A stretch of DNA of 41,412 bases from Alteromonas naphthalenivorans (GCA_047631715.1 JBLICC010000002.1:1-41412); one strand, 5' to 3'; positions 1,831-38,423 are shown, counted from the stretch's first letter. Notes: generated by a model not told the origin, from the sequence alone. A program made the numbers and translations.

Positions 1831-2745
1831 CTATGGTCTAAATGCGATTTTTATTGCTTTGCCCCAAACCTGACGCGGGAACTTAATTTCTTCTAAAGCT
1901 TCTTGTACTGCAACATCATAAATAACAATATCCGACAATGTAATAACTTTGCTTTCTATCAATTTTCCATCCCAACCAACAGTTACTTGCACCTCACTTG
2001 TTACATCTTGATGTACTCCAATAGGTGGCTCCCATACTTCTTGTACAGCTGCCTGTAACACACTTTCTAACTCTATACCTCTGAGTTCTTTATGCGTTAC
2101 ATAACGTACGTTTTCTTCTACTTGCTCTATAACAGGATCAAGTTCTTTTATATCCGAGTTACCCTGATCTAATACGGGTTTTTTATTAAGTTCATCCCGA
2201 GTGGATGCGAGTTTATGAGCATTTGTATCGAGGGACTCAGCTGTCTTCTCTTCTTGTTTTGCGACTTGCTCTACGGGCTTAACTACAGGCTTTGGTTCTT
2301 CTTTTTTTTCTATTATTTTTTTTTGCTCTTGCTTGATTATCTTCTCTACTGGTTTAACTACTGGCTTTGGTTTTATTGCTTCAACAACTTTCTTTGCTAT
2401 TACAGGCTTAGGTTTAGGTTTTAGCACAACTTTCTTAACCTGTGCCAACTGAGTAACTTGTTTTTTTTGTACTATTTTTTTTGCCTGTTTTCTAACACTT
2501 ACTCCACCACTTTTTGTAATACGTTTTAAAGCTTTAAGTTTTTTAGCAGACAATGGTAATAACCGCACAATAACATTATCTGGATTATGTTTTGCATGTA
2601 CTTTTAGCAACAAATCGTGTTGGTAATCCTTGTACATAAAAAACAAACCAAAACAAAGTATTGCGTGCGTTAATACCGAAAGAATAGAAAGCTTAAAAAG
2701 AAAAGAATGTTTCTTAGGTAATCTTTGCTGTAGCCAAAGCAACAT
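1831..2745 (-). CDS. tolA: TolA/TonB-like envelope-spanning protein (TM anchor, Lys/Pro/Glu-rich spacer, TonB_C-like C-terminal domain)
   Basis: N-terminal TM helix (FLFKLSILSVLTHAILCFGLFFMY), then a long KPKP/KPV/EEK low-complexity spacer and a compact C-terminal domain. Its position after tolQ and tolR supports the call. I prefer the start at ATG 2745 (GGGAG RBS 6 nt upstream) over the track start at 2763. Confidence 0.7.
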   Translation of the reverse strand: MLLWLQQRLPKKHSFLFKLSILSVLTHAILCFGLFFMYKDYQHDLLLKVHAKHNPDNVIVRLLPLSAKKLKALKRITKSGGVSVRKQAKKIVQKKQVTQLAQVKKVVLKPKPKPVIAKKVVEAIKPKPVVKPVEKIIKQEQKKIIEKKEEPKPVVKPVEQVAKQEEKTAESLDTNAHKLASTRDELNKKPVLDQGNSDIKELDPVIEQVEENVRYVTHKELRGIELESVLQAAVQEVWEPPIGVHQDVTSEVQVTVGWDGKLIESKVITLSDIVIYDVAVQEALEEIKFPRQVWGKAIKIAFRP

Positions 2746-7592: not shown

Positions 7593-9392
7593 ATGAGAAA
7601 AAATCTTTATCTTTTATTCGCATTGCTCATTCCCGCTGCTGTTCAACCTTATACTATAAGCTCTGAGCAGAAAGAGATCAATCCGACAGAAACAGAAATT
7701 ACACTACATGTTAATCTTAACCCTTATGAACATATTTACGAAAAGCATATCACCCTTTCTAGCGACAATCCCCATGTTAAACTAAGCAAATGGAAAACTG
7801 ATCATTCTTCAAAAGACAATTACGATAAACGTCTTAAAACTACCTGTAAATCTTTTGGCGAAAATTTTTGTATCAACTCAGTTGTTACGAGAACAACACC
7901 AGAAGCAGTACATGCAAAATTACATGTAACACTTGCTTCTAACCAATCTCCTAATCCAAAAGAACAAACATTTGATCTAAAATTTAAACAATCAAAAGAA
8001 GCAGTAAAAGAAACACCTTCAAAACCACTTGAAATTATTAAAGAGAAAAAAACTACAAAAGTACCATCTAAAGAAGGTGCTACTTTTATGGAAGTTATCA
8101 AAGAGTATCGAGAACAACTTAAGCACACTATTGCTCATACAGATTCTTGGTCTTTACGCCTTCTGGTAGCATTCCTACTTGGATTATTACTCAGTTTAAC
8201 ACCTTGTATTTACCCTATGATTCCTATTACCGTTGGAATTTTACAATCACAAGGTAGCAAATCTATTTTACGTAACTTTTTACTTTCTTGCTGCTATGCA
8301 CTTGGTTTAGGAACAACATTTTCTATCATGGGATTAATCGCTGCAAGTTCTGGCGATGCCTTTGGATCATTAATGGTTAATCCCATTTTTGTAATATGTA
8401 TTGTAACGTTCTTACTCTATTTTGCAGGATCTCTTTTTGGTTTTTATAACCTTTATATTCCACGATTTATGCAAAACAAAACCGATGTATCTAAATCTGG
8501 ATCTGCACTTTCTATCTTTATCTTTGGGCTTGCAAGTGGATCGGTTGCATCACCCTGCTTGTCTCCTGGGCTTGCATTGATTTTGACCATGGTTGCAACA
8601 ATGTCTAGCAAGATACTTGGATTCTTACTTCTCTTTGTTTTTGGTATTGGTATTAGTACTCCACTTATTATTATTGGAACATTTTCTGGTTCTATTAACT
8701 TATTGCCACGCGCCGGCATGTGGATGTTAGAAATTCAAAAAGTATTCGGATTCATGTTAATCGGCATGTGCTTTTATTACTTAAGCAATGTTTTACCGTG
8801 GTATGTAATATTAATTGGTCTTACCTGTTTTACTGCAATTATTGGTTATTATTATTTCTCTTCTGCCCACAAAACAACTGGCCTAAGTAACAAGATCCAA
8901 AACATGATTGGTGTAGTAGCATTAATTATTACGGTTTTCTTATGCATCGAATCGTTCCAAGAAATGTACTATCCACAACTAAATAATGCTTTTGAAAAAA
9001 CCTGGATGACTGATTACAACAAAGCAGTTACCACCGCGCAAAAAGAAGACAAAATGTTGTTCATTGATTTTTGGACACCGTACTGTTCTATTTGCAAAGC
9101 AATTACTGCAACCATCTTAAAGAATCCAAAAGTAACTCAAGTACTTAAAGATAAGTATGTAATTTTATCTGTTGATGCATCTGATTCTTCTGTAGAGCCA
9201 TACAAATCACTTAAGTCTCGTTATGACACTTGGGGTGCACCTAATTTGCTTGTGGTTGACCCTAACGATGGCAAAGAACTTAAACGCTGGCAGAGCGAAA
9301 TGTATGATATGGAAATTGATGATGTTGTTAAAGCACTTAACTTATATAGTGCAAATACTGACAGCAAAGGATTACTAGGTATTTTACCGTAG
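7593..9392 (+). CDS. dsbD: Thiol:disulfide interchange protein DsbD (three-domain: N-terminal periplasmic, TM core, C-terminal thioredoxin)
   Basis: 599 aa with a signal peptide. The N-terminal domain has a CKSFGENFC Cys pair. The polytopic core carries both conserved Cys-Pro motifs (LTPCIYPMIP, SPCLSPGLA). The C-terminal thioredoxin fold has the CxxC motif (WTPYCSICK). Confidence 0.85.
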   Translation: MRKNLYLLFALLIPAAVQPYTISSEQKEINPTETEITLHVNLNPYEHIYEKHITLSSDNPHVKLSKWKTDHSSKDNYDKRLKTTCKSFGENFCINSVVTRTTPEAVHAKLHVTLASNQSPNPKEQTFDLKFKQSKEAVKETPSKPLEIIKEKKTTKVPSKEGATFMEVIKEYREQLKHTIAHTDSWSLRLLVAFLLGLLLSLTPCIYPMIPITVGILQSQGSKSILRNFLLSCCYALGLGTTFSIMGLIAASSGDAFGSLMVNPIFVICIVTFLLYFAGSLFGFYNLYIPRFMQNKTDVSKSGSALSIFIFGLASGSVASPCLSPGLALILTMVATMSSKILGFLLLFVFGIGISTPLIIIGTFSGSINLLPRAGMWMLEIQKVFGFMLIGMCFYYLSNVLPWYVILIGLTCFTAIIGYYYFSSAHKTTGLSNKIQNMIGVVALIITVFLCIESFQEMYYPQLNNAFEKTWMTDYNKAVTTAQKEDKMLFIDFWTPYCSICKAITATILKNPKVTQVLKDKYVILSVDASDSSVEPYKSLKSRYDTWGAPNLLVVDPNDGKELKRWQSEMYDMEIDDVVKALNLYSANTDSKGLLGILP

Positions 9393-9405
9393 TTTTGTAA
9401 AGCGT

Positions 9406-9691
9406 CTCTCGACCCTTCGATACAATTTCTAACGAAATCACTCAGGGTGACTCGATTTTGTGAGTCATACTGAGTGATTTTTTTGTGAAAAGTATAATAG
9501 AGAACGAATTACATACATTCGATACAAATACTCACTAAAGTTCGTATTCACTCAGTATGATTCGATTTTGTTCATCTCGAGTTATCCAAAGATCGAATCA
9601 CCCTGAGTGATTTTGAGTGTAACGAAAAATCTTGAATCATCCTGAGTAATTCCGTTAGGAATTGTATCGAAGGATCGAATGGGTCGAGGGA
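9406..9691. repeat. Composite of nested inverted copies of a ~40-45 nt palindromic repeat family (arms TCAyCCyGAGTG ... TGTATCGArGG)
   Basis: Outer inverted pair: 9408..9457 (reverse orientation) against 9636..9690 (forward). Inner perfect inverted pairs: 9436..9450 AATCACTCAGGGTGA against 9598..9612 TCACCCTGAGTGATT, and 9464..9476 TCATACTGAGTGA against 9549..9561 TCACTCAGTATGA. A further reverse-oriented full copy lies at about 9517..9565. The composite fills the convergent dsbD/hpf intergenic region. Confidence 0.85.
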
Positions 9692-9712
9692 CACAAAATA
9701 AAAATCTCTATT

Positions 9713-10048
9713 CTAGAAACTATCTTTCGGCGTACCTGGATGATTCCGTTTATCAAGTGCCTTGCCTTTATGCTTCTTTAGCTCTTTACCCATAACTTTA
9801 ACGACATGATCAATCTCTTGGTACAAATCTTTGCCTTCTCGACTTGCCATCAAATGAAGGTTCTTTCCATTCAATCTCAACTCAACCTTATGATGCGTAT
9901 TGTTATGATCAGCCTGAAGAACTAAATCAATATAAAGAGGCTCAAGATCTTGGTTCAAATATTTAGTAAGTTTTTCTAGCTCTTTGTTTGCATATTTTTC
10001 AGCTAAATCTGAATGATCCATTCCACGGAACGCTATTCTGATGTTCAT
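9713..10048 (-). CDS. hpf: Ribosome hibernation promoting factor / RaiA family (short form)
   Basis: 111 aa. MNIRIAFRGMDHSDLAEKYANKELEKLTKYL...VELRLNGKNLHLMASREGKDLYQEIDHVVKVMGKELKKHKGK aligns along its length with the HPF/YfiA pattern (I.G....T.AL.....K..KL..Y...V.L........A...V.G..IHA.AEG.DMY.AID...DKL..QL.KHK.K). Confidence 0.8.
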   Translation of the reverse strand: MNIRIAFRGMDHSDLAEKYANKELEKLTKYLNQDLEPLYIDLVLQADHNNTHHKVELRLNGKNLHLMASREGKDLYQEIDHVVKVMGKELKKHKGKALDKRNHPGTPKDSF

Positions 10049-10228: not shown

Positions 10229-10588
10229 ATGAAAAAGTTATTAATGATCGCAATGTGTTTAGTGTCAACATCTACAATACCAAAAAAAGTTTCAGATAGA
10301 GAACTAAAACAGTGGGAAAATACAGCAAAAAACTATGGAATTAGTGTAAAACATTCTGTTTCTTATTTAGATTCTGGAGATAATGTTGTAAGAGTACGTA
10401 GTATAGATAATACTCCTGTTTCCACTGTTAAGCCTGTCTTAAGCGCAGCAGGAAAAAAAGTAGCTAAAGTTGAAACAGTTTATCGAATCCAACCAATACG
10501 CACAGGTAATGGTAGTTATACAGTAAAGACAAACGGACAAACACAAACAATATATTTCTACGCGCAAGCTGCAGGACACCAAAAATAA
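10229..10588 (+). CDS. Hypothetical exported protein (one copy of a beta-rich module shared with the next gene)
   Basis: 119 aa with a hydrophobic leader MKKLLMIAMCLVSTS. The RBS and leader are nearly identical at DNA level to those of the next gene (10218..10255 against 10625..10662, 1 mismatch). I recognise no family. Confidence 0.55.
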   Translation: MKKLLMIAMCLVSTSTIPKKVSDRELKQWENTAKNYGISVKHSVSYLDSGDNVVRVRSIDNTPVSTVKPVLSAAGKKVAKVETVYRIQPIRTGNGSYTVKTNGQTQTIYFYAQAAGHQK

Positions 10589-10635
10589 CGATAAAGAAAA
10601 CAATAAAAAAGCCTCGAATTAATTAAGGATAAAGA

Positions 10636-11679
10636 ATGAAAAAGTTAATAATGATCGCAATGCTCGTGGCAATAGGAAACCAAGTTGAAGCGAGTCAGGA
10701 TTTGGGCGGTTTAAAGGCCAGTGGAAAACCACCAAAAACAGCTATTATTTCCAGAGTAGAAATTCCACAATATATAAATTATGGAGTAAGTATTAGTAGC
10801 ATAAATGCTAAAATATCTTCTAAAAAAGATCAATTAAATAATATACGCCCTATAGTTAATGCAACACAACCCGGAATTGTTACGGTAAAAACAACTACCT
10901 ATTATAATTTTTCAACTTCAGTACCGTATGTTAAAGTAGTTCCATTAAGCACAGGGACATCATCAAAAACTCCTGTAAATTTTTATGTAAAACAATCTTA
11001 TTCTGTAGGCAATGGTGTATCCAAAATTATTAACAGAACAAACAAAGCTAACGCTACTATTACCAAGAATATGATTAAAGCAACAAAAACTGGACCTGTC
11101 ACAGTAGAAACAACTACCTATTATAACTTCATAGCTGCACCACTTAATCAAGTATTCAGGAATCCTTTAATTAGAAACAGCTCCCGAATAACCCTGCCCA
11201 CTTATATAGATGTTAAACTTAGTAAAGCTGACAAAAAACGTTTTACAATTACTAACAATAATAATGGTTCAAGTACCTACGTTCCTACTGCTCAAATGGG
11301 AACAGTCAATGTAAGCCTTAGATATAATAAAAATATAAATATTAAAGATAAAAATATTAAAGATAAAAATTGGCAGAAATTCCCCGTAAATATAACTTGT
11401 GAGTATGGTTCATGCGCACGTTATCCAATGAAGATTGTTAGAAATAAATCTACTGACTGTATTAATTTCTATTTTAAACTTCAAGAAAATGATGTTTTTA
11501 GTAACCCACGTATTGCTACTTTAAATGTAAAGAAGAATACGATATTAGGTAAACAAGTAGGTTCAGGCTTCATACACAATACAAAAATTCCTAAAGGTCA
11601 GGAAGCTAATAGAGCTTATAGTAAACACTATTTTGAAATAGTTAATTCACCAAAAGAGAAATCTACAAAAAGAAAATAG
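10636..11679 (+). CDS. Hypothetical exported repeat-module protein
   Basis: 347 aa with signal peptide MKKLIMIAMLVAIGNQVEA. An internal duplicated module is present (ATQPGIVTVKTTTYYNFSTS / ATKTGPVTVETTTYYNFIAA). There is a 2 x 15-bp tandem at 11341..11370 (IKDKN IKDKN). No family recognised. Confidence 0.6.
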   Translation: MKKLIMIAMLVAIGNQVEASQDLGGLKASGKPPKTAIISRVEIPQYINYGVSISSINAKISSKKDQLNNIRPIVNATQPGIVTVKTTTYYNFSTSVPYVKVVPLSTGTSSKTPVNFYVKQSYSVGNGVSKIINRTNKANATITKNMIKATKTGPVTVETTTYYNFIAAPLNQVFRNPLIRNSSRITLPTYIDVKLSKADKKRFTITNNNNGSSTYVPTAQMGTVNVSLRYNKNINIKDKNIKDKNWQKFPVNITCEYGSCARYPMKIVRNKSTDCINFYFKLQENDVFSNPRIATLNVKKNTILGKQVGSGFIHNTKIPKGQEANRAYSKHYFEIVNSPKEKSTKRK

Positions 11680-11754: not shown

Positions 11755-12090
11755 TTATAAACTATCTTCAGAAGCATCTGGATTATTTTGTTGATCAAGA
11801 ACTTTTTCATTATGCTTGCGCAACTCTTTGATCATAACTTTAACAACATGATCAGTTTCTCTATATAAATCTGTACCTTTTACAGCAACTATTAAATGAA
11901 AATCTTGCCCATGAAGCTGTAACTCAACTGTGTAAGATTTCTGCTGCTTATCTGGTTGAAAAACAAGATCAAAATAAACAATTTCGTCTTCTGCAGGCAA
12001 AAATTTATTAATCTTTTTAAGTTCTTTATTTGCATATTTTTCTAAATCATCTGAATGATCAATACCAAGAAATACTATTTTAATACTCAT
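11755..12090 (-). CDS. hpf: Ribosome hibernation promoting factor / RaiA family, second paralogue
   Basis: Read from ATG 12090: MSIKIVFLGIDHSDDLEKYANKELKKINKFL...VELQLHGQDFHLIVAVKGTDLYRETDHVVKVMIKELRKHNEK. It is collinear with the 9713..10048 product and about half the residues are identical by eye. The upstream extension in the track (start 12126) is unlikely to be translated. Confidence 0.75.
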   Translation of the reverse strand: MSIKIVFLGIDHSDDLEKYANKELKKINKFLPAEDEIVYFDLVFQPDKQQKSYTVELQLHGQDFHLIVAVKGTDLYRETDHVVKVMIKELRKHNEKVLDQQNNPDASEDSL

Positions 12091-12112
12091 CGAATCGCCT
12101 ATGCATGAAGAC

Positions 12113-12146
12113 AAAAAAAGCCTCAAGTTACTGAGGCTTTTTTTTA
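12113..12146. terminator. Intrinsic terminator after der (A-run and T-run on both sides)
   Basis: AAAAAAA-GCCTCAagttacTGAGGC-TTTTTTTT immediately downstream of the der stop (12151) on the minus strand. Confidence 0.7.
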
Positions 12147-12150
12147 TAAA

Positions 12151-13467
12151 TTAAAAGATCATTTTTCGTAATGCAAACTTAATCGGTACACTCTTAAGAT
12201 CGAATTGCTTACGCATCACGTTCTCAAAAAAGCCTAACTGACTTTCTCCAAACCATTCTGTATGGTTAACATTCAAACGAATGATTGGAGGCGCAGTTGC
12301 AACCTGTTGAACAGAATGCAATTTAAGTCGCTGTCTATTTTTAAACAGTGGCTTTTCGTCTAATCCACCTTTGCAAGTCATAGTAAGCTGTGTAGTAGAA
12401 AAATGGGTGTTGTAACGATCCCATACTTTTCTAATCAACGGCATAATTTTGCCTACGTTGTGTCTTGTTTTACACGAAATAGTCATCATCTCTAATTTTT
12501 TAAGTAAGTAATCGTAAGGCTCTGATTCAAATTCCCATTGGGTTTGTTTTGTATCGTCAATAAGATCGTGCTTGTTACGCAAAATAATAAGCGCTTTACC
12601 TTCTTGAAACACATACCCAGCCAATTTGAGTTCTTGTTGAGAAAGCTCAGCTTCTTCGCCATCAATAAGCAATAATACAATGTCTGCATCGCGTACGGCA
12701 GCAAAAGAACTTTTTACCATCAACTCTTCGATTGTTTCATCTACCGAACGTTTTCTACGTACACCGGCAGTGTCTGTTACCTGAATAGTTTCTCTATAAA
12801 ACTTTATATGATCGGTAATTGCTTCTCGTGTGGTACCTGGCATATCAGCAACCAATGAACGTTGCTTATCTAGCAACAGATTGGTTAACGATGATTTACC
12901 CACATTTGGCTTACCAAGTAGTACAATCTTAAATTCTGGCTTCTCGTCTTTTTCAGATGATTCAGAAGGCAAAAGACGTAAAATTTCTTCTAGCAATTCT
13001 GCAGTACCTGTTCCATGCTGTCCAGAAATCTCAAGAACATTTTTATGCCCAAGACGATGAAAATCAAGAATATTTTCTTGTGTTTTTTTAGTGTCAATTT
13101 TATTGATTGCAAGAATAGTTGGCTTATTAAGTTTATGAACAAATTTAGCCAAAGCTTGATCTTCAGATGTTACTCCAACTTTACCATCTACTACAAAGAT
13201 CACCACGTCGGACGATTCTAATACTTCAATGGCACGTTCACGTACCGCTTCTGTTAAGTAATCAAGACCCTTTTTAAAATCAATACCACCGGTATCAATA
13301 ATTTCAAAAGTTCGGCCTTGCCAATCAACAGAATCGAATACAAAGTCACGTGTTACACCTTCATAATCCAATGTCATGCTTTTAACTGATTTAGACAATC
13401 TATTAAACAACGTTGATTTTCCAACGTTTGTTCTTCCAATAATAACTACTTTGTTACGCTTTTTCAT
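12151..13467 (-). CDS. der: Ribosome-biogenesis GTPase Der (EngA), double G-domain plus KH-like C-terminus
   Basis: Two P-loops (GRTNVGKSTLFN, GKPNVGKSSLTN), two DTGG/DTAG motifs and two NKxD motifs (NKID, NKHD). ATG 13467 is preceded by GAGGGGGA. The start overlaps the dnaX stop by 14 nt. Confidence 0.9.
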   Translation of the reverse strand: MKKRNKVVIIGRTNVGKSTLFNRLSKSVKSMTLDYEGVTRDFVFDSVDWQGRTFEIIDTGGIDFKKGLDYLTEAVRERAIEVLESSDVVIFVVDGKVGVTSEDQALAKFVHKLNKPTILAINKIDTKKTQENILDFHRLGHKNVLEISGQHGTGTAELLEEILRLLPSESSEKDEKPEFKIVLLGKPNVGKSSLTNLLLDKQRSLVADMPGTTREAITDHIKFYRETIQVTDTAGVRRKRSVDETIEELMVKSSFAAVRDADIVLLLIDGEEAELSQQELKLAGYVFQEGKALIILRNKHDLIDDTKQTQWEFESEPYDYLLKKLEMMTISCKTRHNVGKIMPLIRKVWDRYNTHFSTTQLTMTCKGGLDEKPLFKNRQRLKLHSVQQVATAPPIIRLNVNHTEWFGESQLGFFENVMRKQFDLKSVPIKFALRKMIF

Positions 13468-15169
13468 GTTCCCCCTCAACTTCTACAACGGTGCCACCAA
13501 AGGCATCTACTAATTTATTTGCTGTTTTCCATTTATCTTTATCTGTTACATTAACTACTATCGTTTTTTTTATTTTTGGACGCACAAACTTATTTGGCGA
13601 CCCTGCTGCTTGCGGCTTAGCAATTACTTTACCTGCACTACTCGAAACAGACCCTTTTTTAAAATCATCCTGAGTGGTTCCGTTAGGAATTGTATCGAAG
13701 GATCGAGAGTTTTTCTCTACAACCGGTTTAGGCGCCGCACTTTTTTCGAACACCGGTTTAAATTGCACATCTGGACCAAATGATTCTTGTAAGAAACCCA
13801 TCCATGTACTTTTTGTTTCTTTTAACCAGTCTCCAAAAAATGTAGTGTCTTTAGCAAAAGCAACTACCAACTCATTTGTTTGTTCATCATAACTTTTAAA
13901 CTGTGCTTGTTTAAAAATAGAATTTAAAAGTGGTTCGCTCATTTGCTCAACTTTTACAACAAACCCACTCCATCTATTATCTTGTTTACTACTAACTGGT
14001 GCTACTGTAACTGGTTTAGGAGGTACAGTTTTTTTTTGAACCGTAACTGCTACAACTGGCTCTGTTGCATTTTCGGTACCACACATACCAAGTAACATCA
14101 TATCAAGAACACCCTGCTGTGCTGTTGTTTTAAGTAGCAACATTTCGGTGCTATACACTTTTTGTAACCATCCAGTTAACTGTTCTAAAGAACATTTACG
14201 TGCAAATGCAGCAACACGTTCTTTATCTTCGATTGTAACTTGCCGTGCAACACCATATTTTACATACAAAATATTGCGAATTACTTCTTGTAACTTTTGC
14301 CACACTGCCAACGGAGTATAACTATTTACTTTTTTTTCTTGTAAGAAAACTAATAACTGCCCCGGATCACCCGCTATAATCTGTGTAAACAGATCTAATA
14401 AAATTGGTTCAGGTACATGACCAAGTACTCTAAGAACCGCATCTTTAGATACTTTTGCATGAGAAAATCGTACTTGCTCTAACAAGTTAAGCGCGTCTCG
14501 TGCAGAGCCTTCTGTTTCTTGAATAATAGTTTTGAGTGCATTTTCTTCTACACGAATATTTTCTGCTGTGCACACTGCTTGCAAATGCTTAAGCAATGGC
14601 TCAAGACTAATTGCAGGAAAGAACAACTGAAAACAACGAGACCGTACTGTTTCTATAATTTTTTGTGGATCAGTAGTTGCTAACATAAATACTACTGATG
14701 CTGGAGGTTCTTCTAAAATTTTTAAAAAGGCATTAAATGCTGCCTTGCTCAACATATGTGCTTCATCAATAAGATATAAACGCTTGGTTCCCATAACAGG
14801 CAAAAGCGAAGCCGCATCAATAATTTGGCGGACATTATCTACACCGGTATGCGATGCTGCATCAATCTCTATAAAATCTGGATGGCTCCCTGCTGCTATT
14901 GCTTTGCACGACTCACAGTTTAAACATGGAATTTTATGCGATTTAGGATCTTTCCTAAAGGCATCAAGTTCAGCACAATTAAGCGCAGCTGCAAAGATAC
15001 GAGCAGTGGTTGTTTTACCACATCCTCGTTGACCAGAGAATAGATAGACAGGAAAAATCTGATCGAGGTATAAGCTATTTTGTAACATGCGAATAGACAA
15101 ATCTTGCCCAATCACTTGATCGAACTGCTTAGAACGCCATTTACGAGCGAGATTGAGCTGTGTTGCCAT
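13454..15169 (-). CDS. dnaX: DNA polymerase III subunit tau (gamma/tau), DnaX
   Basis: AAA+ clamp-loader motifs: FSGQRGCGKTTTARIFA, the Zn module CLNCESCKAI, DEAHML and the sensor-1 region. I prefer the start at ATG 15169 (MATQLNLARKWRSKQFDQVIGQ) over the TTG at 15253. The C-terminal variable region contains an in-frame repeat copy and an A9 run (see findings). Confidence 0.9.
   Translation of the reverse strand: MATQLNLARKWRSKQFDQVIGQDLSIRMLQNSLYLDQIFPVYLFSGQRGCGKTTTARIFAAALNCAELDAFRKDPKSHKIPCLNCESCKAIAAGSHPDFIEIDAASHTGVDNVRQIIDAASLLPVMGTKRLYLIDEAHMLSKAAFNAFLKILEEPPASVVFMLATTDPQKIIETVRSRCFQLFFPAISLEPLLKHLQAVCTAENIRVEENALKTIIQETEGSARDALNLLEQVRFSHAKVSKDAVLRVLGHVPEPILLDLFTQIIAGDPGQLLVFLQEKKVNSYTPLAVWQKLQEVIRNILYVKYGVARQVTIEDKERVAAFARKCSLEQLTGWLQKVYSTEMLLLKTTAQQGVLDMMLLGMCGTENATEPVVAVTVQKKTVPPKPVTVAPVSSKQDNRWSGFVVKVEQMSEPLLNSIFKQAQFKSYDEQTNELVVAFAKDTTFFGDWLKETKSTWMGFLQESFGPDVQFKPVFEKSAAPKPVVEKNSRSFDTIPNGTTQDDFKKGSVSSSAGKVIAKPQAAGSPNKFVRPKIKKTIVVNVTDKDKWKTANKLVDAFGGTVVEVEGEHEKA
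13664..13708. repeat. Single copy of the palindromic repeat family, located inside the dnaX reading frame
   Basis: ATCATCCTGAGTGGTTCCGTTAGGAATTGTATCGAAGGATCGAGAG is about 90% identical to the copies at 9636.. and 30628... On the minus strand it is translated as ...SRSFDTIPNGTTQDD... within the intact DnaX ORF. Confidence 0.85.
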
Positions 15170-15323
15170 GCCATACTTTCTAGATTTATACCCACTAAAA
15201 TTTAACTCTTTTAGTGTACCCGAGATACCCACTTGCCGCAACACAGGCTCCAAATCTAAGCTTAAATTTATTTAATAACGTTTTATCGGTAATTTATCGG
15301 CAAAATAATTTTTATTACAATAG

Positions 15324-15462: not shown

Positions 15463-16413
15463 TTATTTCTTTGGAGCAGCTTCTTTTTTAGGAGCAGCCT
15501 CAGTAGCTTTTGCAACAGGTTTTGCTTCTGTAGCTTTTTTAGGAGCAACAGCAGGTTTATCTGCAACTTTTGCTTCTACTTTTTTAGGAGCAGCAGCAGG
15601 CTTTACAGGAGCAACTTTTTTAGCAGCGGCAGCTTTAATGTCTGCAGCTCTTTTAGCAGCTACTTCTTTTCTTTCTGCTTTTTTCTTTTCTTGTAAAAGC
15701 TCGAATTCTTTTTCTTCTTCAGCTTTTTTATCTTTTGCAAGAGCAACACCACGTTCTGCAGCTTCTACTAGATAATCAATGATAATGCGAATAGATTTTG
15801 GAGAATCATCATTTGCAGGAATCACGTGATCAATTCCAAGTGGATCTGAGTTAGTATCGATTAATGCAATAACTGGAATACCCATGCATTTAGCTTCTTT
15901 AATTGCAGATGCTTCTTTACGAACATCAACAACTATAATAGCTCCAACTGGCCAGTTAAGCTTTACAATACCACCAATATTTTTTTCTAGACGATCAACA
16001 CTTTTTTGAAAAACGTTAAATTCTTTTTTAGTGTAATGACCACGATCTGATTTTGAAATCACATCTTTAAGATGCAAATACTTTGTTACAGATTTTTTTA
16101 CTTGAGAGTTATTAGTAAGTGTTCCACCAATCCAACGATGTGTAACATAAGGCATAGAAACAGTACCAGCTGCTGCTTTCATGATCTCTTGTGCAGGTTT
16201 TTTAGTACCAATCCACATAACTGTTTTGCCTTCACCAATTATGCTTTCTACAAATTTTGAAGCTTTTTCTAATTGATAAGCAGTTTTTGCAACATTAATT
16301 AAATGAACTCTATTTTTTTGTCCCCAAATATAAGGAGCCATGCGCGGACACCAACGAGAAGATTGATGACCAAAATGTACACCAGCTTTAACTAAATCTC
16401 TAAAATCTATCAT
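15463..16413 (-). CDS. rpsB: 30S ribosomal protein S2 with a ~90-aa Lys/Ala/Pro-rich C-terminal extension
   Basis: From ATG 16413: MIDFRDLVKAGVHFGHQSSRWCPRMAPYIWG..., the canonical S2 N-terminus and core. The tail is KDKKAEEEKE...AAAAKKVAPVKPAAAPKKVEAKVADKPAVAPKKATEAKPVAKATEAAPKKEAAPKK. The GTG start at 16446 in the track is less likely. Confidence 0.9.
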   Translation of the reverse strand: MIDFRDLVKAGVHFGHQSSRWCPRMAPYIWGQKNRVHLINVAKTAYQLEKASKFVESIIGEGKTVMWIGTKKPAQEIMKAAAGTVSMPYVTHRWIGGTLTNNSQVKKSVTKYLHLKDVISKSDRGHYTKKEFNVFQKSVDRLEKNIGGIVKLNWPVGAIIVVDVRKEASAIKEAKCMGIPVIALIDTNSDPLGIDHVIPANDDSPKSIRIIIDYLVEAAERGVALAKDKKAEEEKEFELLQEKKKAERKEVAAKRAADIKAAAAKKVAPVKPAAAPKKVEAKVADKPAVAPKKATEAKPVAKATEAAPKKEAAPKK

Positions 16414-16551
16414 TGAAAATACCTTTTGCAGGGTTTTATCTATCACTTCTCGGCCAGCAATTTAAGCTTGGCCACCCTGATTGAGAGAGTGAGTGTTTGT
16501 AAACAAAATACTCGAATAAGCGTACCAGATCATGAATTTTTTGCAATATTC

Positions 16552-17961
16552 CTAATCAGATACCTCATCTGATCCAATCACCTCTCCATCCTTAATAGCT
16601 TTTTCGAATCGTTTTCCTAAGAAGAAGGCAACTCCAGACCATAGCACAACAATGCCAGTAAAGAAGATACCATGCACATTGCTGGTAACAGCTCCACCCA
16701 CACTTTTTGCTAAGATATTAAAGCTTGAGCCTGCTCCACGAGCTAATTTTTTACCAAACGTATCGATCCATGATTTTGATTTAAACTTCATATCTTTTAC
16801 GGTTGGAATATAAAGCGCTTCGGTTACCGGCTGATTAAATGCATAGTAAATAGCTCTGAGAGCTACAAATGCTATTATTAATGCTCCAGGAGACGGACTT
16901 AGCATCAAATATATAAGCAACGTCCCCATCACCACAGGCATTACCATAAGTGACAAACGTTCTCCTAAATAAGAGATAAGCACACGTGTTCCAAACAAAG
17001 AAATAACAAACCCTATAAAATGCGTATAAAAAACAACTTTAAACAAGAAACAACTTACTCCAGAAATGCTTCCACCTGCATCTTGAGCAATGCCCAAACG
17101 CATGTAGCTTAAAATAGCACTCAATACTTCGTAAAAGAAAACAGTACAAAAAATACCAAAAGCATAGGGATAACGTAGTAGTATCATTAGACCACTAAAA
17201 ATACCTGTTTCTTTTGTTCCTGATTTACTCTGTTTTTTTTCAAATTTATATGCAGCTTCATACCCATGCAAATATTGCCCAGGGACAGTCTTCATCATCA
17301 TATTAATAATAAAGGGAACTGCTAATAAAATTATAGATGATATAACAATTAAAAGTGCATGCAAACGTGTTTCATTTAACCCTACTGAATGACATTGACC
17401 TGAATGAGACAGCAAAAACCATGCTAATCCTGCAGACAGCATGCCGCCCAGCTTTGATATAGAAATAAGAATACCATAATTCTTTTTTGCAGAATCAGGA
17501 GTAGACACTGAGTTTAAGAATGCCCAGAACACGCCCACTACAAAGGATGAAAAGCTCTCGATATAAAAATAGTAAAACCAACCAAAGAACCAATAAGCAC
17601 TATATGGTTTAACTACTTCTGTACCAAGCCCACCATAACTAATAATAATGGCACAGAAAAAACCGAGAATACTATATACCCAAGCACAATAAGAAAGCAA
17701 CTGATAACGACGAACAGTATCAACTAACTTGGCATATAAAAGAACCAATGGAATAAGACCAAAAATCATGAATAATTTAGCATAAGGAATCGCTTCTTTT
17801 CCACCTACGATATTCATGAAGATAGAGTCTTTCAACTCTTTGATAATTGTATAGGAAGAAATAATTGCAAAAAAAGCAGCACTCAAAAAGAAAATCTTTA
17901 ATCGCTCTTTTTCTTCAATTTCCCACAAAGCTCTAAATGTTTGCATAAAACCTATGCGCAT
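16552..17961 (-). CDS. TLC/NTT-family nucleotide transporter (ATP/ADP-translocase family), paralogue 1
   Basis: 469 aa and polytopic. Family motifs: FWAFLNSVSTPDSAKKNYG and LYIPTVKDMKFKSKSWIDTFGKKLARGAGS (compare the Rickettsia/Chlamydia Tlc/Npt pattern LYIP...KYKAK..ID..G.R.GK). AAGGAT RBS. Confidence 0.8.
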   Translation of the reverse strand: MRIGFMQTFRALWEIEEKERLKIFFLSAAFFAIISSYTIIKELKDSIFMNIVGGKEAIPYAKLFMIFGLIPLVLLYAKLVDTVRRYQLLSYCAWVYSILGFFCAIIISYGGLGTEVVKPYSAYWFFGWFYYFYIESFSSFVVGVFWAFLNSVSTPDSAKKNYGILISISKLGGMLSAGLAWFLLSHSGQCHSVGLNETRLHALLIVISSIILLAVPFIINMMMKTVPGQYLHGYEAAYKFEKKQSKSGTKETGIFSGLMILLRYPYAFGIFCTVFFYEVLSAILSYMRLGIAQDAGGSISGVSCFLFKVVFYTHFIGFVISLFGTRVLISYLGERLSLMVMPVVMGTLLIYLMLSPSPGALIIAFVALRAIYYAFNQPVTEALYIPTVKDMKFKSKSWIDTFGKKLARGAGSSFNILAKSVGGAVTSNVHGIFFTGIVVLWSGVAFFLGKRFEKAIKDGEVIGSDEVSD

Positions 17962-18001
17962 CTTAATCCTTTATAGATTTATAACAACTCACATACTACA
18001 A

Positions 18002-18032
18002 CAAAAAAAGCCCTCTAGAAGACTAGAAGGCT
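18002..18032 (-). terminator. Intrinsic terminator after NTT paralogue 2
   Basis: Minus strand: AGCCTTCTAGtcttCTAGAGGGCT followed by TTTTTTT. Confidence 0.6.
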
Positions 18033-18103
18033 AAAATTTTATACGTCACGTATATTGGACGCTCTAAGCGATTTTTTATTATTTTTATATATGTCGTTCT
18101 TTC

Positions 18104-19435
18104 TCAACATATCTGACGATCCTCTTCAATTGCTTTTTTGTGCATATCTGCCACAAATAAAGCTGAAACTATCCACACCCCTACAAGTCCCAGGCAAATA
18201 CCTGAGCTTACCACTACAAAGAACGATTGTAGCATAGGACGGAGCATATGAACAGAGGAACCCACACTTTTTGACAACCTAGAACCAAAACTATCTATCC
18301 AAGCTTTAGCTTTATACTTAGATTCTCGTGTTGTAGGAATATATAATTGCTCTTTAGCCGGCTGATTTAACGCGTAATTAAGCCCTTTTATAGTGACAAC
18401 AACCGTAAGAGCTACCCATAGCTCTGGCATCCACCACACAGCCAATACACCTGCACCCATAAGCATAGGTAGAAGCAATAATGTACGTGATAAGCCCAAT
18501 GCTCTTCCAATGGCTCCTGCACCTAATAATAAACTTATAAGCGCTACACCATTAGCACATATTGCATATTTAAAGAAAAACTCTTGCATAGCTGCACCAT
18601 TGTCTAGCACTTCTGCCGCAAGAATCTTCATATGCAGTTCAAGAACCGTTCCTACAATTTCGTATAAACTAACAATCGCTACAATACCAAGTAAATATGG
18701 TTGAGAAAAAATAAGTTTAATACCTTCAAAAAAACTAGGTGATGATTTTTTGTATGCAGCAGTTTTTTTATCTGAATGAAACCCTACCAATTCAGACTTT
18801 GGAGTCATTTTCATAAAATGATAAATTAAATATCCAATAATCAACATTCCAAGTGCCCCCATCCTAATAATAGGAATCGGACCAAAAGAGTTACTCATAG
18901 TATAACCAAGTAGCGGTCCAAGTACTCCACCAAACTGAGCACCCATTGCGATAATACCAAACCCTTGCTTTGCAGAATCGGGCGTAGATGTATCAGCAAC
19001 AAATGACCAAAACAATGCAACAATAAGTGAGCCAAAACTTTCTACAAACGCATACCAAAGCCATCCTATTGTACGACCTCCATGCGCCACTGTATTTGGC
19101 AACCCGATAAAAGGGTCAGACAACGCGTACGCAAATAATAATGCACCTACTGCATACACAGAACAGATCACATAAAACATTCTGTGACGGGCAAACATAT
19201 CTACCAATTTACCATAGAGCATAAGCAACGGAAATAGAAAACAAAGAGAAAATACTTTTGCATACGCAAGCCATTGCTTGCCAACAACATGTATAAAGAC
19301 GGTGTCTTTGAGTGGATTGATTAACCAGTAGACACCAATAGTAAAAGCAAAGATGAGTGCGAGTCGTATAAACTTCAAACACTCATCTTTGCTTTTGAAT
19401 TTTCCCCACAATATTTGAGCGAGGGATTGTAACAT
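18104..19435 (-). CDS. TLC/NTT-family nucleotide transporter, paralogue 2
   Basis: 443 aa. Motifs FWSFVADTSTPDSAKQGFG and LYIPTTRESKYKAKAWIDSFGSRLSKSVGS. Closest in-window relative is paralogue 4 (shared C-terminal ...KAIE.DR..C). Confidence 0.8.
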   Translation of the reverse strand: MLQSLAQILWGKFKSKDECLKFIRLALIFAFTIGVYWLINPLKDTVFIHVVGKQWLAYAKVFSLCFLFPLLMLYGKLVDMFARHRMFYVICSVYAVGALLFAYALSDPFIGLPNTVAHGGRTIGWLWYAFVESFGSLIVALFWSFVADTSTPDSAKQGFGIIAMGAQFGGVLGPLLGYTMSNSFGPIPIIRMGALGMLIIGYLIYHFMKMTPKSELVGFHSDKKTAAYKKSSPSFFEGIKLIFSQPYLLGIVAIVSLYEIVGTVLELHMKILAAEVLDNGAAMQEFFFKYAICANGVALISLLLGAGAIGRALGLSRTLLLLPMLMGAGVLAVWWMPELWVALTVVVTIKGLNYALNQPAKEQLYIPTTRESKYKAKAWIDSFGSRLSKSVGSSVHMLRPMLQSFFVVVSSGICLGLVGVWIVSALFVADMHKKAIEEDRQIC

Positions 19436-19604
19436 GGATGGTTCCTTATAAAAAAGTTACTCTGTCCATGTTACTGTACCACGTTTACTTAAAAAGAATA
19501 TCTCTAAAAGTTTTTTATTTTTTTCAAAAAAAAAGAGCCATTCCAAGTGGGTCAATATTTAGACCATCACAATAGAATGACTCAATTAGTATTTGTATAC
19601 TATT

Positions 19605-21005
19605 TTACTCGATGATTTCGCCGTCACGAACTAGTTGTGCATTTTTAATACCAACGTATATAGCAACTAACAGCCATACACAAATAACACCAAGACTAAT
19701 TAAGGTACCTGTTGTCATTAAACCTGCAATACTTGCTGCAACATTACCAGAAACAATTAATGCTCCACCAATATTTGCACCAGCCATTTTACCTGCACGG
19801 CCACCAACCATATCAACAAGACCTTTTGCTTTAAACTTAGCGTCTTTTGAAGTTGGAATGTACATCATTTCTTTTACAGGATTATTAACAGCATAAGAAA
19901 CAGCTGTAACAATCATCATTGCTCCAAAAGTTGCCCAGAAAAGATTTTCTGCTGTTGGACCAGTTAAGTAATAGAAGTAAATACCTGTTAAACATGCACC
20001 AAACATAATTGGATAGATTAACAAACAAACACGAAGACCATATTTTTTCATAGCATATGCTGTACCCAACAAAGCCATAAGCAATGAAAGTGAGTTTACA
20101 CACATTCCAAAGATACCTAAGAAACGAGCAAACTCAGCTTTAGGCATAATAACAGATGCTTGATATTTCATTTGCATATCAACAACAACTTTTGCTACTT
20201 CATAAAAAGTTGAAACTACAAATACACCCATTAAGTATGGTTGTGTTACAAGAAGTTTAAAACCTGCAAGTACATCTGGTTTACTTTTTTTCTTCTCTAC
20301 TTTACCACTGGTCATTTCTGAAGCTGGAACAGATTTCATCAAACTTTTAATAGTAAAAATCAAACCACAGATTCCCGCGATTGCAATAAAATACAATGGC
20401 CATGTTGGAAAGTTACCTTTGAAATACATTACTGAAGAAGCTGATATTGCACCAATTTGACCCAATACAATAACAAATGGAAAACCACGTTTTGCTTGAT
20501 CACTTGTTGCACTACTTACCGTGAATGACCAAAAAACAGCCATCATTAAAGAACCAAATGCTTCTGTTGCTAAGTACCCTAAAGAACCAGCAGCACCCAA
20601 TAGCATAGGACCAAATGAAAATGCTTTAATAGCTTCCACACCCAATGTATCAGCACTACAAAGCATTAATGCTACAAATGCAAAAACAGATGCAAAGAAA
20701 GTACCAATAACATAAAATAATTGTTGTTTTTCAAACATATCAATTAATTTTGTATAAACAGCTAATGCACCCATCACAACAAATGGCGAAATTGTTTTAA
20801 GTTTTGCAACCATTGTTGCACCATAACCAATAGGCCAGCCAAATTCTTCTGAAAAAGCAATTTTGTAAATAACATCGTCTTTTACCAAACGCAATAACCA
20901 ATAAGTACCAGCAGTAAACAAAAATGCAACCGCCAAATGCGTAAACTTATTTAACTCTTCTTTTTTTAAATCAGGATAAAAATACTGAATAATACCACTA
21001 AACAT
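19605..21005 (-). CDS. TLC/NTT-family nucleotide transporter, paralogue 3
   Basis: 466 aa. Motifs FWSFTVSSATSDQAKRGFP and MYIPTSKDAKFKAKGLVDMVGGRAGKMAGA. AAGAGG RBS. Confidence 0.8.
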   Translation of the reverse strand: MFSGIIQYFYPDLKKEELNKFTHLAVAFLFTAGTYWLLRLVKDDVIYKIAFSEEFGWPIGYGATMVAKLKTISPFVVMGALAVYTKLIDMFEKQQLFYVIGTFFASVFAFVALMLCSADTLGVEAIKAFSFGPMLLGAAGSLGYLATEAFGSLMMAVFWSFTVSSATSDQAKRGFPFVIVLGQIGAISASSVMYFKGNFPTWPLYFIAIAGICGLIFTIKSLMKSVPASEMTSGKVEKKKSKPDVLAGFKLLVTQPYLMGVFVVSTFYEVAKVVVDMQMKYQASVIMPKAEFARFLGIFGMCVNSLSLLMALLGTAYAMKKYGLRVCLLIYPIMFGACLTGIYFYYLTGPTAENLFWATFGAMMIVTAVSYAVNNPVKEMMYIPTSKDAKFKAKGLVDMVGGRAGKMAGANIGGALIVSGNVAASIAGLMTTGTLISLGVICVWLLVAIYVGIKNAQLVRDGEIIE

Positions 21006-21107
21006 ATATATACCTCTTATGTTAACTAATTATAGTGAAAACCATTTCACCTTAAAATTTTCCATACTACACCCTTTGTTATCTTGGCCGAAAAACTCCT
21101 TTCTTAT

Positions 21108-22451
21108 CTAACACACAATGCGATCTTGCTCAATAGCCTTGGTGTGTTCTTTTCCTATAAATAAAGCAGCCCAAAACCATACAAGAATTAATGCTGCAGA
21201 AAGCCCAAGACTCATCATGGTAAACGTTGCAACTCCCAAGATTGGTCGTAAGGTGTTGATTCCAGATGCGGTACCTTTTGAAAGGCGTATACCAAACATA
21301 TCGATCCAAGCTTTTGCTTTATACTTAGTATCTTTTGATGTTGGAATATATAATTGCTCTTTTGCTGGTTGATTTAATGAGTAATTTATACTCTTACACG
21401 CTACCATTACCATAAACGCAACTCCTAAAACAGGATTCATGTTAACAATAATAGCAGACGCTCCTACCACAACAGGCAATAATAAGAGTGTACGAGCAAG
21501 CCCTAATCTACGAGCTATTCCTTTTGACCCTAATAATACACTAAACACAGCAACTATATTAATACAAATTGCGTATGTAGTAAAAAAGTTAGTTAATGCA
21601 TCACCAGTATATTCTGCCTTTGCAAGCCATTTAAATTGAAAATCTATCATAACAATAACAACTTCATAAAATGCCACCATGGTAAAAATACCAAGCACAT
21701 AAGGACGCGTTGCTACCAAATATAAACCATCTAGAAATCCAGTTCTTGTTTTTTTACCTTTTTCTAAAGCATTCTTGCTTCCATCAAATCCTTTAAGCTG
21801 ATCGCGTGGAGTTGTAAGCATAAAATAATACACACCTACTGGAATACAACAAATACCAACCACACACAAGAGAATAGCTGATCCAGAAGAACTCATATTA
21901 ATAATTATTTTCCCCATAAGAGGAATAATAACACCACCAGTTTGAGCTCCAAATACAATGAGAGAATACCCTCTACGAGCAGATTCAGGAGTAGTAGTAT
22001 CAGCAACAAATGACCAGAAAAGAGCCACCATGGTTGAACCAAAGCTTTCTACAAATAGGTAAAACACCCATCCTAAATAACGATGTGGATCTTCAACAGT
22101 ATTCGAAATGCCCATTTGAGGATCAAAAATAAAGAAGGCAAAACCAATTGAACATAAAGCATAAAAGCCCGAATAACCATATAAAAGCTTATGTCGTGGA
22201 TACTTATCAACTAAATATGAATATATCATCACTGCACATGCCGTAACCAAAATAGAGAGCATTTTTGCCCATGGTTGATATTCTCGACCCACCATAGTCA
22301 AGAAAATGCTGTCTTTAAGTGGCCTAAAGAGCCAATAGACTCCAATGGTAAGCCCAAAAAGAACTGCTAAAATAGAAAATTTCTTTTTTTCTTCCGGACT
22401 TTCAAAGCCGGTAAAAATAGAAGTAAAAAGACTCATAATACTGCTAGCCAC
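21108..22451 (-). CDS. TLC/NTT-family nucleotide transporter, paralogue 4
   Basis: 447 aa. Motifs FWSFVADTTTPESARRGYS and LYIPTSKDTKYKAKAWIDMFGIRLSKGTAS. The GTG start at 22451 is preceded by AAGAGGGG; an alternative ATG lies at 22436. Confidence 0.8.
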   Translation of the reverse strand: MASSIMSLFTSIFTGFESPEEKKKFSILAVLFGLTIGVYWLFRPLKDSIFLTMVGREYQPWAKMLSILVTACAVMIYSYLVDKYPRHKLLYGYSGFYALCSIGFAFFIFDPQMGISNTVEDPHRYLGWVFYLFVESFGSTMVALFWSFVADTTTPESARRGYSLIVFGAQTGGVIIPLMGKIIINMSSSGSAILLCVVGICCIPVGVYYFMLTTPRDQLKGFDGSKNALEKGKKTRTGFLDGLYLVATRPYVLGIFTMVAFYEVVIVMIDFQFKWLAKAEYTGDALTNFFTTYAICINIVAVFSVLLGSKGIARRLGLARTLLLLPVVVGASAIIVNMNPVLGVAFMVMVACKSINYSLNQPAKEQLYIPTSKDTKYKAKAWIDMFGIRLSKGTASGINTLRPILGVATFTMMSLGLSAALILVWFWAALFIGKEHTKAIEQDRIVC

Positions 22452-30531: not shown

Positions 30532-30545
30532 ATTTTCTTTCTATT

Positions 30546-30586
30546 GATCCCTCGATACAACCACCTTTGGTGCCCACTCGGGATGA
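30546..30586. repeat. Palindromic repeat family copy (reverse orientation, divergent central hairpin)
   Basis: GATCCCTCGATACAACCACCTTTGGTGCCCACTCGGGATGA. Both arms are conserved and the centre is replaced by a CACC-TTT-GGTG hairpin. Confidence 0.75.
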
Positions 30587-30627
30587 ACAAATTTAATTTT
30601 ATCTTCTTTAAAAACAAAGTATAAAGC

Positions 30628-30668
30628 TCATCCCGAGTGATTCCGTTAGGAATTGTATCGAGGGAACC
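30628..30668. repeat. Palindromic repeat family copy (forward orientation)
   Basis: CTCATCCCGAGTGATTCCGTTAGGAATTGTATCGAGGGAACC. It ends exactly at the stop codon of the DJ-1/PfpI gene and forms an inverted pair with 30546..30586. Confidence 0.85.
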
Positions 30669-31184
30669 TTAATTTAAAATACTAACTATCGCTTTACCAA
30701 AATCAGCTGCAGCATCAGGACCATTAGCCGTAACTACATTATCATCGACAACTACATGTTCATCTACAAACGTTACGCTATGTGTATCAAATAAAGATTG
30801 TAATTTTTCATCATGATTCCAACCTGTAGCCTTTTTACCTTGCAATAACTCTGCTTGTGCAAGAATTCTCGGAGAGATACAAATGGCACCATATGGTTTA
30901 CCAAGTGTAAAAAACTCAGTTAATAATTTATGCATCAATGGAGTATTAAGATAATCTACAGCTCCAAAACCACCTACTAAAAATATACCATCATATTCAC
31001 GTGGATGAACCCCATCGATAGTAACATCAACATCAACTTTATTACCATCATGTCCGATTGCTTGCCCCGGTTTATCCGAAGCCGTAACAACCTGAATATC
31101 TGCAGCTTCTAATTCTTCTCGTGTAGCAAGATACTCATGCTCTTGAAAATTCTGACTTGCCACAACTAATAAAACTTGTTTCAT
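30669..31184 (-). CDS. DJ-1/PfpI family protein
   Basis: 171 aa. Type-1 glutamine amidotransferase-like fold pattern: MKQVLLVVAS...EY, GIFLVGGFG, and the nucleophile-elbow Cys in YGAICISPRIL. Confidence 0.8.
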   Translation of the reverse strand: MKQVLLVVASQNFQEHEYLATREELEAADIQVVTASDKPGQAIGHDGNKVDVDVTIDGVHPREYDGIFLVGGFGAVDYLNTPLMHKLLTEFFTLGKPYGAICISPRILAQAELLQGKKATGWNHDEKLQSLFDTHSVTFVDEHVVVDDNVVTANGPDAAADFGKAIVSILN

Positions 31185-37060: not shown

Positions 37061-37091
37061 TTGAACCTCTCATTTATTAATTATTAATTCA

Positions 37092-38381: not shown

Positions 38382-38423
38382 TTTAACCTCCATTAAAATA
38401 TCATATTTTTATAACTAAACTTA

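Follow-up and report, generated by a model that had tools for sequence, protein, structure and literature searches.

An in-frame palindromic repeat in the dnaX gene of a Dependentiae bacterium and the association of its family with small GIY-YIG nuclease genes

The stretch of DNA considered in the current analysis (41,412 nucleotides (nt), GCA_047631715.1 JBLICC010000002.1:1-41412, deposited under the name Alteromonas naphthalenivorans), referred to here as the window, encodes an intact dnaX gene for DNA polymerase III tau/gamma in which a 48-nt palindromic repeat is translated in frame. This segment is probably a copy of a selfish hairpin repeat, likely to be spread or kept in trans by a small nuclease of the GIY-YIG class, that was inserted once into dnaX and was converted later. 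In-frame read-through of the repeat, persistence of its nucleotide core at the same site in related species, covariation of its hairpin and an association of the repeat family with GIY-YIG genes across phyla have been identified. The host of the window is a Dependentiae/Babeliales bacterium, and the DnaX homologues for which a source is named belong to Candidatus Babeliales or Dependentiae.

The repeat copy in dnaX and its history

The open reading frame (ORF) at 13454..15253 on the minus strand has been assigned to DnaX by its Pfam domains (DNA_pol3_delta2, 1.2e-39; gamma3; ATPase lid). Alignment with the orthologues places the true start at M29 of this ORF, which gives a coding sequence (CDS) running from 15169 to 13454. 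The repeat copy occupies nt 1461-1508 of the CDS, corresponding to amino acids (aa) 487-503. On the coding strand it reads CTCTCGATCCTTCGATACAA-TTCCTAACGGAAC-CACTCAGGATGATTT (as a whole, CTCTCGATCCTTCGATACAATTCCTAACGGAACCACTCAGGATGATTT) and it is translated to NSRSFDTIPNGTTQDDF without any stop or frameshift. An initial annotation of the window had described a repeat copy at 13664-13708 translated within an intact dnaX; the reading is correct, and the coordinates are right to within 2 nt (13662-13709). Its figure of about 90% identity to the intergenic copies is a fair one, since the copy shares 95% identity with 9635-9678 and 82% with 30626-30669, and is 89% complementary to 9406-9450. Matches to the dnaX copy with up to 3 mismatches number 2 in the window and 0 in 100 shuffles.

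The repeat segment sits in a length-variable linker of DnaX that extends from FEK... to GSPNKFVR, between a folded domain (aa ~398-474) and a conserved C-terminal helix in the 571-aa numbering. In an AlphaFold model based on an alignment of 22 sequences, residues 505-569 of the 599-aa ORF, insert included, lack secondary structure and score below 50 in the predicted local distance difference test (pLDDT); they are flanked by the folded domain at 426-502 and the C-terminal helix at 572-585. The linker that bears the insert is therefore predicted to be disordered. The mapping on a structural model, which the initial annotation had proposed, thus puts the segment in a region of predicted disorder, where the added peptide would be a neutral passenger.

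The 22 DnaX orthologues have been aligned and a tree has been built from their conserved parts. The segment is missing from the nearest outgroups (proteins P0009-P0011), with linkers of 29-35 aa, and from all the more distant orthologues, in which the length of the linker is variable, whereas the linkers in the clade of the window (P0001-P0008) measure 42-54 aa. The dnaX loci of the window and its relatives are syntenic. The motif is intact at this site in the window and in the loci L001 (P0002, GCA_965658655.1) and L003 (P0004), half-decayed in L113 (P0003) and unrecognisable at the DNA level in L114, L115 and L116; the copy is absent in P0005-P0008 of the same clade. The insertion is therefore old rather than recent, with at least three species carrying it and a fourth in which it is decaying. 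The alignment agrees with the insertion expected in the initial annotation, as DnaX proteins outside the immediate clade lack the segment. The contrary case that it had named, of repeat-free relatives already containing the segment, was not encountered, as the relatives that carry it also have intergenic copies and hence are not repeat-free.

The reading frames of the 5' half differ among the carriers, being TTC GAT ACA (F-D-T) in the window and TCG ATA CAA (S-I-Q) in L001 and L003, so that the same TCGATACAA is read as S-F-D-T-I in the former and P-S-I-Q-T in the latter two. The inner hairpin of the window copy, TTCCTAACGGAA (TTCC-TAAC-GGAA), is that of the intergenic copies of its own genome at 9641 and 30632, while the copies of L001 and L003 have in common the inner hairpin GCC-TNN-GGC. 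Since both frames and inner stems differ among the three species, it is the nucleotide motif that has been kept at this site and not the peptide. The agreement of the window copy with the intergenic type of its genome, unlike that of L001 and L003, points to conversion or replacement in the lineage of the window, and gene conversion appears to have homogenised the copy. The variable inner hairpins at an orthologous dnaX site offer a natural system for the study of conversion among dispersed repeats.

The hairpin repeat family and its association with GIY-YIG genes

The consensus of the element on the dnaX coding strand is (c)A-YCY-TCGATACAA-(inner hairpin, 11-20 nt)-(TC)ACTC-RGR-TGA-(CA or GCG), with a core common to the different phyla of YCY-TCGATACAA-(variable hairpin)-ACTCRGGRTGA. 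The element is 45-50 nt long (about 48 nt encode ~16 aa) and conservation ends abruptly beyond about 50 nt. An outer stem of 3-5 bp (YCY/RGR) is followed by an invariant asymmetric internal loop (TCGATACA / CACTC) and by an inner hairpin that covaries freely. In a gap-free alignment of 17 copies, each from a different genome, the model of two helices has 90.4% of its cells paired against 73% in shuffles, none of the 500 shuffles reaching as high a value, and double-sided changes are seen in 31 cells against 8.1 expected. Sliding the register lowers the pairing to 29-45%. G.T pairs are nearly absent from the inner stem (5 of 387, 1.3%), which suits a hairpin of DNA better than one of RNA. Judging from the sequence, tandem G.A pairs would form the closure of the core CCTGAG...CGAAGG in the complementary strand.

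The commonest form near the GIY-YIG genes described below is a short hairpin of 17 nt (CCTTCGACAAGCTCAGG). The element of the window is a long form with an extra hairpin at the position of the loop of the short form, and some long forms hold a nested short form at the position of the inner hairpin. Such nesting has been observed in five metagenome loci (L123, L140, L154, L180 and L189), where the short-form GGGTTCGACAAGCTCACCC replaces the inner hairpin of the long form; it suggests that the loops of copies already in place receive further insertions. A tandem array with a period of ~331 nt, each unit having one forward and one reverse copy, is found in a Schleiferiaceae genome (OY970262.1; L026, 5700-6900).

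An exact-pattern scan with one genome per species yielded at least 109 stretches, and about 170 chance matches are estimated for its loose pattern in 596 Gb. The YCY closure together with an inner hairpin is present in 91 of 125 matches (among the matches listed), where chance is estimated to account for about 8. Represented among the matches are Babeliales/Dependentiae/TM6, Cloacimonadota, Bacteroidota, Myxococcota, Alpha- and other Pseudomonadota, Gemmatimonadota, Ignavibacteria and Desulfobacterales; the family is present in at least 8 phyla, often with several copies per genome. It is thus not specific to one lineage, but is a cross-phylum family linked to genes of small GIY-YIG nucleases. 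BLASTN of the 49-nt element against plasmids returned only chance matches of 21 nt, and of the 5 matches found in viral contigs none was canonical. A full-text literature search for the motif strings, the typical read-through peptides and palindromic repeats in Dependentiae retrieved nothing relevant.

All the ORFs within 2.5 kb of 69 canonical motif loci (among the matches listed) have been clustered. The recurrent tight neighbour of the copies is a protein of ~95 aa with a single GIY-YIG domain (PF01541, 8e-20), the only domain that Pfam assigns to the associated nucleases; no transposase family is present among the ORFs clustered around these loci. Seven GIY-YIG genes occur in 6 of the 69 loci, which belong to Cloacimonadota, Bacteroidota, Desulfobacterales and TM6. 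For six genes in five of the loci (two in L105 and one each in L092, L103, L024 and L070, the last from TM6) the nearest copy lies 15-220 nt away, and for four of them (both genes of L105 and those of L103 and L070) each side has a copy at a distance of no more than 80 nt. In the remaining locus, L055, the only copy is ~3.8 kb from the GIY-YIG gene.

The reverse search considered 80 metagenome loci centred on homologous GIY-YIG genes and used the pattern NNN-TCGA-N(2-48)-YTC-N'N'N', in which the closing triplets are complementary. This generalised pattern, the lazy matching of which undercounts long forms, revealed 214 motifs against about 29 in shuffles; 160 of them lie within 300 nt of the gene, a region that makes up 16% of the sequence and where about 5 are expected. 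The GIY-YIG gene is flanked by the motif in 64 of the 80 loci and on both sides in 34. Five short-form copies accompany a 'GIY-YIG nuclease family protein' on a plasmid of Sphingomonas parapaucimobilis (NZ_CP155752.1), and inverted long forms lie on both sides of the gene in Methylobacterium bullatum (NZ_LR743510.1), the gene being a tblastn match in an unannotated stretch. A homologue from Legionella has no copies of the repeat.

Two further observations concern the locus L070 of TM6 (GW2011_GWF2_32_72). Directly upstream of its GIY-YIG gene, at 2080-2290, are 3.5 tandem units of 60 nt with one copy each. The gene itself is named 'tRNA/rRNA methyltransferase (SpoU)' by one source and looks mis-annotated.

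Further copies in the window and in other genes

The 41-kb window has 6 clean copies of the repeat (Table 1). The initial annotation recognised the copy in dnaX and overlooked a second in-frame copy, in the tolA-like gene. The latter is oriented like the dnaX copy, and its 3' half is read in the frame of that copy. Its insertion is clean: among 15 orthologues only one (P0124, locus L117) has it and 14 lack it, and a clean gap marks the site in the tolA orthologues from the genomes of L001 and L003. A gain of the element has thus occurred in the DnaX linker and another in TolA.

Table 1. Coordinates of dnaX, tolA and the repeat copies in the window
Feature	Position	Strand	Basis or remark
dnaX (DNA polymerase III tau/gamma), 571 aa	13454..15169	-	Pfam and orthologue alignment
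In-frame hairpin-repeat copy in dnaX, 48 nt	13662..13709	-	Sequence comparison; orthologous copies at the same site in L001 and L003
tolA-like gene (PF13103 TonB_2) of a tolQ-tolR-tolA-tolB cluster	1831..2745	-	Pfam and gene order
Second in-frame copy, tolA/TonB_2-like gene	2192..2234	-	Sequence scan; encodes ..ESLDTNAHKLASTRDEL..
Cluster of intergenic copies between two convergent genes	9406..9690	.	Sequence scan
Clean copy in the cluster	9414-9450	+	
Degenerate copy in the cluster	about 9462-9505	-	
Near-canonical long-loop copy in the cluster	9519-9560	+	
Degenerate copy in the cluster	9589-9620	-	
Clean copy in the cluster	9637-9673	-	
Intergenic inverted pair	30545..30671	.	Sequence scan
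Member of the pair	30549-30586	+	Inner stem CACC/GGTG
Member of the pair	30628-30664	-	Inner stem TTCC/GGAA

In-frame copies have been identified in other genes of Dependentiae as well. These near-canonical copies are embedded in long ORFs and bordered on either side by Pfam domains: one occurs in MnmE (L067); another splits the DsbD_TM domain of a dsbD-like gene (L081); two are present in a heparinase II/III-like protein (Hepar_II_III, L095) and one in an unannotated protein of 379 aa (L048). Together with dnaX and tolA at least 6 host genes are affected, and 10 of the 53 copies from Dependentiae are candidate in-frame copies (one of them doubtful), which amounts to about 7 independent events among the matches listed. 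These copies are in both orientations and in several frames. C-terminal domains of the type IX secretion system (T9SS) in Cloacimonadota also carry copies. The in-frame colonisation of genes in the manner of the Rickettsia palindromic elements (RPE), as proposed in the initial annotation, is therefore supported and extended to more genes; the family is, however, not confined to this lineage, being cross-phylum and GIY-YIG-linked, and the event in dnaX, shared by at least three species, is not recent.

Some of the GIY-YIG ORFs extend into the adjoining repeat, as seen at the C-termini of P0143-P0146 and at 1785-1802 of L199, where the annotated ends (..HPSTSSG) are translated hairpin. Read-through peptides from the repeats probably contaminate many metagenomic protein sets.

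Several other features of the window are recorded here for completeness. The end of dnaX and the der (engA) ORF, the latter listed from its first in-frame TTG, have 26 nt in common (13454-13479), and the called genes overlap by 14-17 nt in the five relatives having both genes in the locus; in view of these overlaps, the translation of the two genes may be coupled. Ribosomal protein S2 (15463-16446, minus strand) has a Lys/Ala/Pro-rich C-terminal extension of ~90 aa with imperfect repeats (family D10), and the length varies in the relatives (300-327 aa). Four tandem paralogues of ~445-470 aa (16552-22451, minus strand; repeat family D4) follow, and their counterparts in the syntenic loci are TLC ATP/ADP translocases (PF03219), which are typical of an energy-parasitic intracellular lifestyle. 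Two paralogues of the ribosome hibernation factor S30AE (9713-10048 and 11755-12126, minus strand; repeat D11) share 73% identity and enclose lineage-specific ORFs (10229-11679); copy number and inserted genes differ in L001, L003 and L114. Two large ORFs are made up of tandem repeats of 72 nt, or 24 aa (34970-38393, minus strand; families D1-D3, D5 and D6), and leucine-rich repeat proteins are encoded in the matching neighbourhood of the relatives. A small ORF has a low-complexity stretch rich in Lys, His and Asp encoded by an 18-nt tandem repeat (27934-28026, family D7).

Origin of the dnaX copy and comparison with known systems

The Ssn proteins (Chenal et al. 2025, PMC11893778) are single-domain GIY-YIG proteins of ~94 aa (CDD cd10448) that cut only single-stranded DNA (ssDNA), beside a hairpin repeat of their own, referred to as NTS in Neisseria and as 'Ssn-related motifs' (SRM) elsewhere. 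By analogy with Ssn and NTS, the repeat described here would be recognised as ssDNA by the single-domain GIY-YIG nuclease of ~95 aa, which would be encoded elsewhere in the genome, outside the window, and would propagate or maintain the copies in trans; the flanking nucleases are expected to cleave the TCATCCTGAG...CGAAGGATGA strand only. In the ancestor of this Babeliales clade, one copy may have entered the linker of DnaX, which varies in length and is predicted to be disordered, and would simply have been translated there. The gene could stay functional because the element has no stop in four of its six reading frames and additional residues are tolerated by the linker. In the lineage of the window the inner hairpin would later have been swapped for the intergenic type of the genome, by gene conversion or by re-insertion, and the same process may have placed copies in tolA and other Dependentiae genes.

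Several observations weigh against this account. To our knowledge nobody, the authors of the work on Ssn included (PMC11893778), has demonstrated that such nucleases move the repeats, and the closest solved structures of the nucleases associated with the present repeat are UPF0213 proteins. The GIY-YIG gene is absent from the 41-kb window and from the syntenic loci of the close relatives; a homology search with the TM6 protein returned 8 proteins only and gives no indication either way for the clade of the window. The published SRM pattern, HGTCWYN(0-2)YYVSBRHN(0-5)WNVSBRGN(0-2)RNCYNB, fits none of 91 copies (among the matches listed), and in the 80 loci centred on GIY-YIG genes it has 2 chance-level matches, with none beside the associated genes. 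A target-site duplication, the criterion for miniature inverted-repeat transposable elements, is not definable, the empty and filled tolA sites being too diverged; inverted pairs are present, and the unit is a single hairpin. Nearest-neighbour DNA folding of single window copies recovers the inner stem only and does no better than shuffles (z -0.2 to -1.5), and, this folding being uninformative, the structure rests on covariation. The element has been treated in the current analysis as SRM-like and not as a proven member, because its motif differs and its nucleases may fall either in cd10448 or in the neighbouring UPF0213 group.

Independent insertions of the same element at a hot spot in different lineages, in place of one gain followed by conversion, would account for the inner hairpins of the window and of L001/L003, which have hardly a position in common and are unequal in length by 1 nt, and for the ~15 extra nt upstream of the window copy; the nested copies of L123 and L140, with a short form in the loop of a long form, indicate that copies may attract insertions. 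The 5' extension (AACTCTCGATCC against AAGTCT-GCTCCC) and both the conserved flanks nevertheless align at one codon position in the three species, L113 has its decaying copy at the same place and a single gain is more parsimonious on the DnaX tree. Recurrent insertion is accordingly considered unlikely. A function of the motif within dnaX, as a cis-regulatory hairpin of the mRNA, a control site for recombination or transformation or a useful peptide of tau, might be suspected from the perfect conservation of the core in three species within a fast-evolving linker, and from the modulation of transformation in Neisseria by the NTS repeats (PMC11893778). Yet the frame of the peptide varies, P0003 has only a decayed copy and P0005-P0008 have none, the same motif occurs in unrelated genes in both orientations, and conservation does not extend to the A-rich run that follows the window copy, so that no frameshift site of the dnaX type is left; we regard such a function as improbable. 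A -1 frameshift site at this A-run had been tried as a candidate and was rejected, because its frame is wrong and neither L001 nor L003 has it.

Still less probable is a structured RNA motif, such as a stabiliser of 3' untranslated regions, a terminator or a ribozyme, overlapping dnaX by chance. Several intergenic copies do come immediately after the end of the gene before them, in 'sense' orientation, and covariation suits RNA as well as DNA, but the rarity of G.U pairs in the inner stem (1.3%), the occurrence of copies in both orientations relative to their host genes and the tight association with the gene of a DNA nuclease speak against an RNA motif. Rfam also has no match for the motif: at the gathering threshold on the window and 18 loci, and with E up to 10 on 9380-9720, only tRNAs, tmRNA and spurious matches to microRNA hairpins were obtained. 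The cores of hammerhead and other ribozymes, the kink-turn, attC, dif and the GTAG heads of REP elements were compared by eye and rejected, the sequences being unlike. That the segment is the original DnaX linker and the source of the intergenic copies, or an artefact of assembly, is hardly credible: the shared sequence itself is all that speaks for it, while the segment is missing from outgroup orthologues and the in-gene copy recurs in three assemblies of independent origin, in which synteny is conserved and the ORFs are intact. The occurrence of the family in many other phyla excludes a derivation of the repeats from dnaX.

A selfish hairpin repeat maintained in trans and inserted once thus remains the preferred explanation of the dnaX copy. 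A broader proposal, that the CCTTCGA...CTCAGG hairpins constitute an unrecognised, cross-phylum repeat class of the Ssn type, with 17-nt short forms and nested long forms, that routinely enters the coding sequences of Dependentiae, is put forward only tentatively. Were it true, GIY-YIG/hairpin systems would generally give rise, as a by-product, to protein-coding palindromes like the RPE in intracellular bacteria, perhaps those of Rickettsia among them, and nuclease-linked conversion or selection, not chance, would keep the perfectly conserved core in dnaX. The present case is a second, independent example of palindromic repeats that are translated as part of essential genes in an intracellular lineage, a phenomenon for which Rickettsia has until now been the best-known case, and it connects such behaviour with a definite candidate for the agent, namely a small nuclease of the GIY-YIG kind for which cleavage of ssDNA beside its own hairpin repeat has recently been demonstrated. 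The published SRM pattern misses a very abundant class of motif, which matters for the annotation of repeats, for spurious ORFs and peptides in metagenomes and for the mining of specificities of ssDNA nucleases.

Like the RPE, the element is a dispersed palindromic repeat found in frame within intact, essential genes of an intracellular bacterium, adds a peptide in variable or surface regions and is common to the orthologues of related species. It differs in the phylum of the host, in its size of ~48 nt (RPE are roughly 100-150 bp long), in its occurrence in many phyla and in the link to GIY-YIG genes. The comparison is one of behaviour, not of sequence; by this analogy the element appears to act like an RPE, which is not to say that it has been shown to be one. 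With the repetitive extragenic palindromic (REP) and REPIN elements it shares the character of short extragenic palindromes, often in inverted pairs or clusters, as at 9406-9690 and 30545-30671, and a non-autonomous nature, the enzyme being encoded by a single-copy gene with repeats at its own flanks. The enzyme here is, however, a GIY-YIG nuclease in place of the Y1 (HUH) transposase of IS200/IS605 type (RAYT), the GTAG head is lacking, and the core is conserved across phyla whereas REPs are species-specific.

The closest likeness in the arrangement of gene and repeat is to Ssn and its SRM. Both systems have hairpin repeats of 20-50 nt, many per genome, which flank the gene of a single-domain GIY-YIG protein of ~94 aa on one or both sides (in the present case in other genomes). 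An SRM lies near 71% of the ssn homologues and on both sides of 42% (PMC11893778), against 80% and 42% here, and the NTS-ssnA-NTS layout has been likened to an insertion sequence (PMC11893778). Both repeats are widespread across phyla and enriched in symbionts, the SRM-rich genomes including those of Rickettsia and Wolbachia (PMC11893778). The complementary strand of some copies opens with a (T)GTCAT leader, as in NTS. The core of the present element, CCTTCGA...CTCAGG with an extra inner hairpin, is different, and so is its frequency in genes, for only 2% of the NTS copies lie within genes (PMC11893778) as against the in-frame events noted above among the Dependentiae copies (about 7 for 53).

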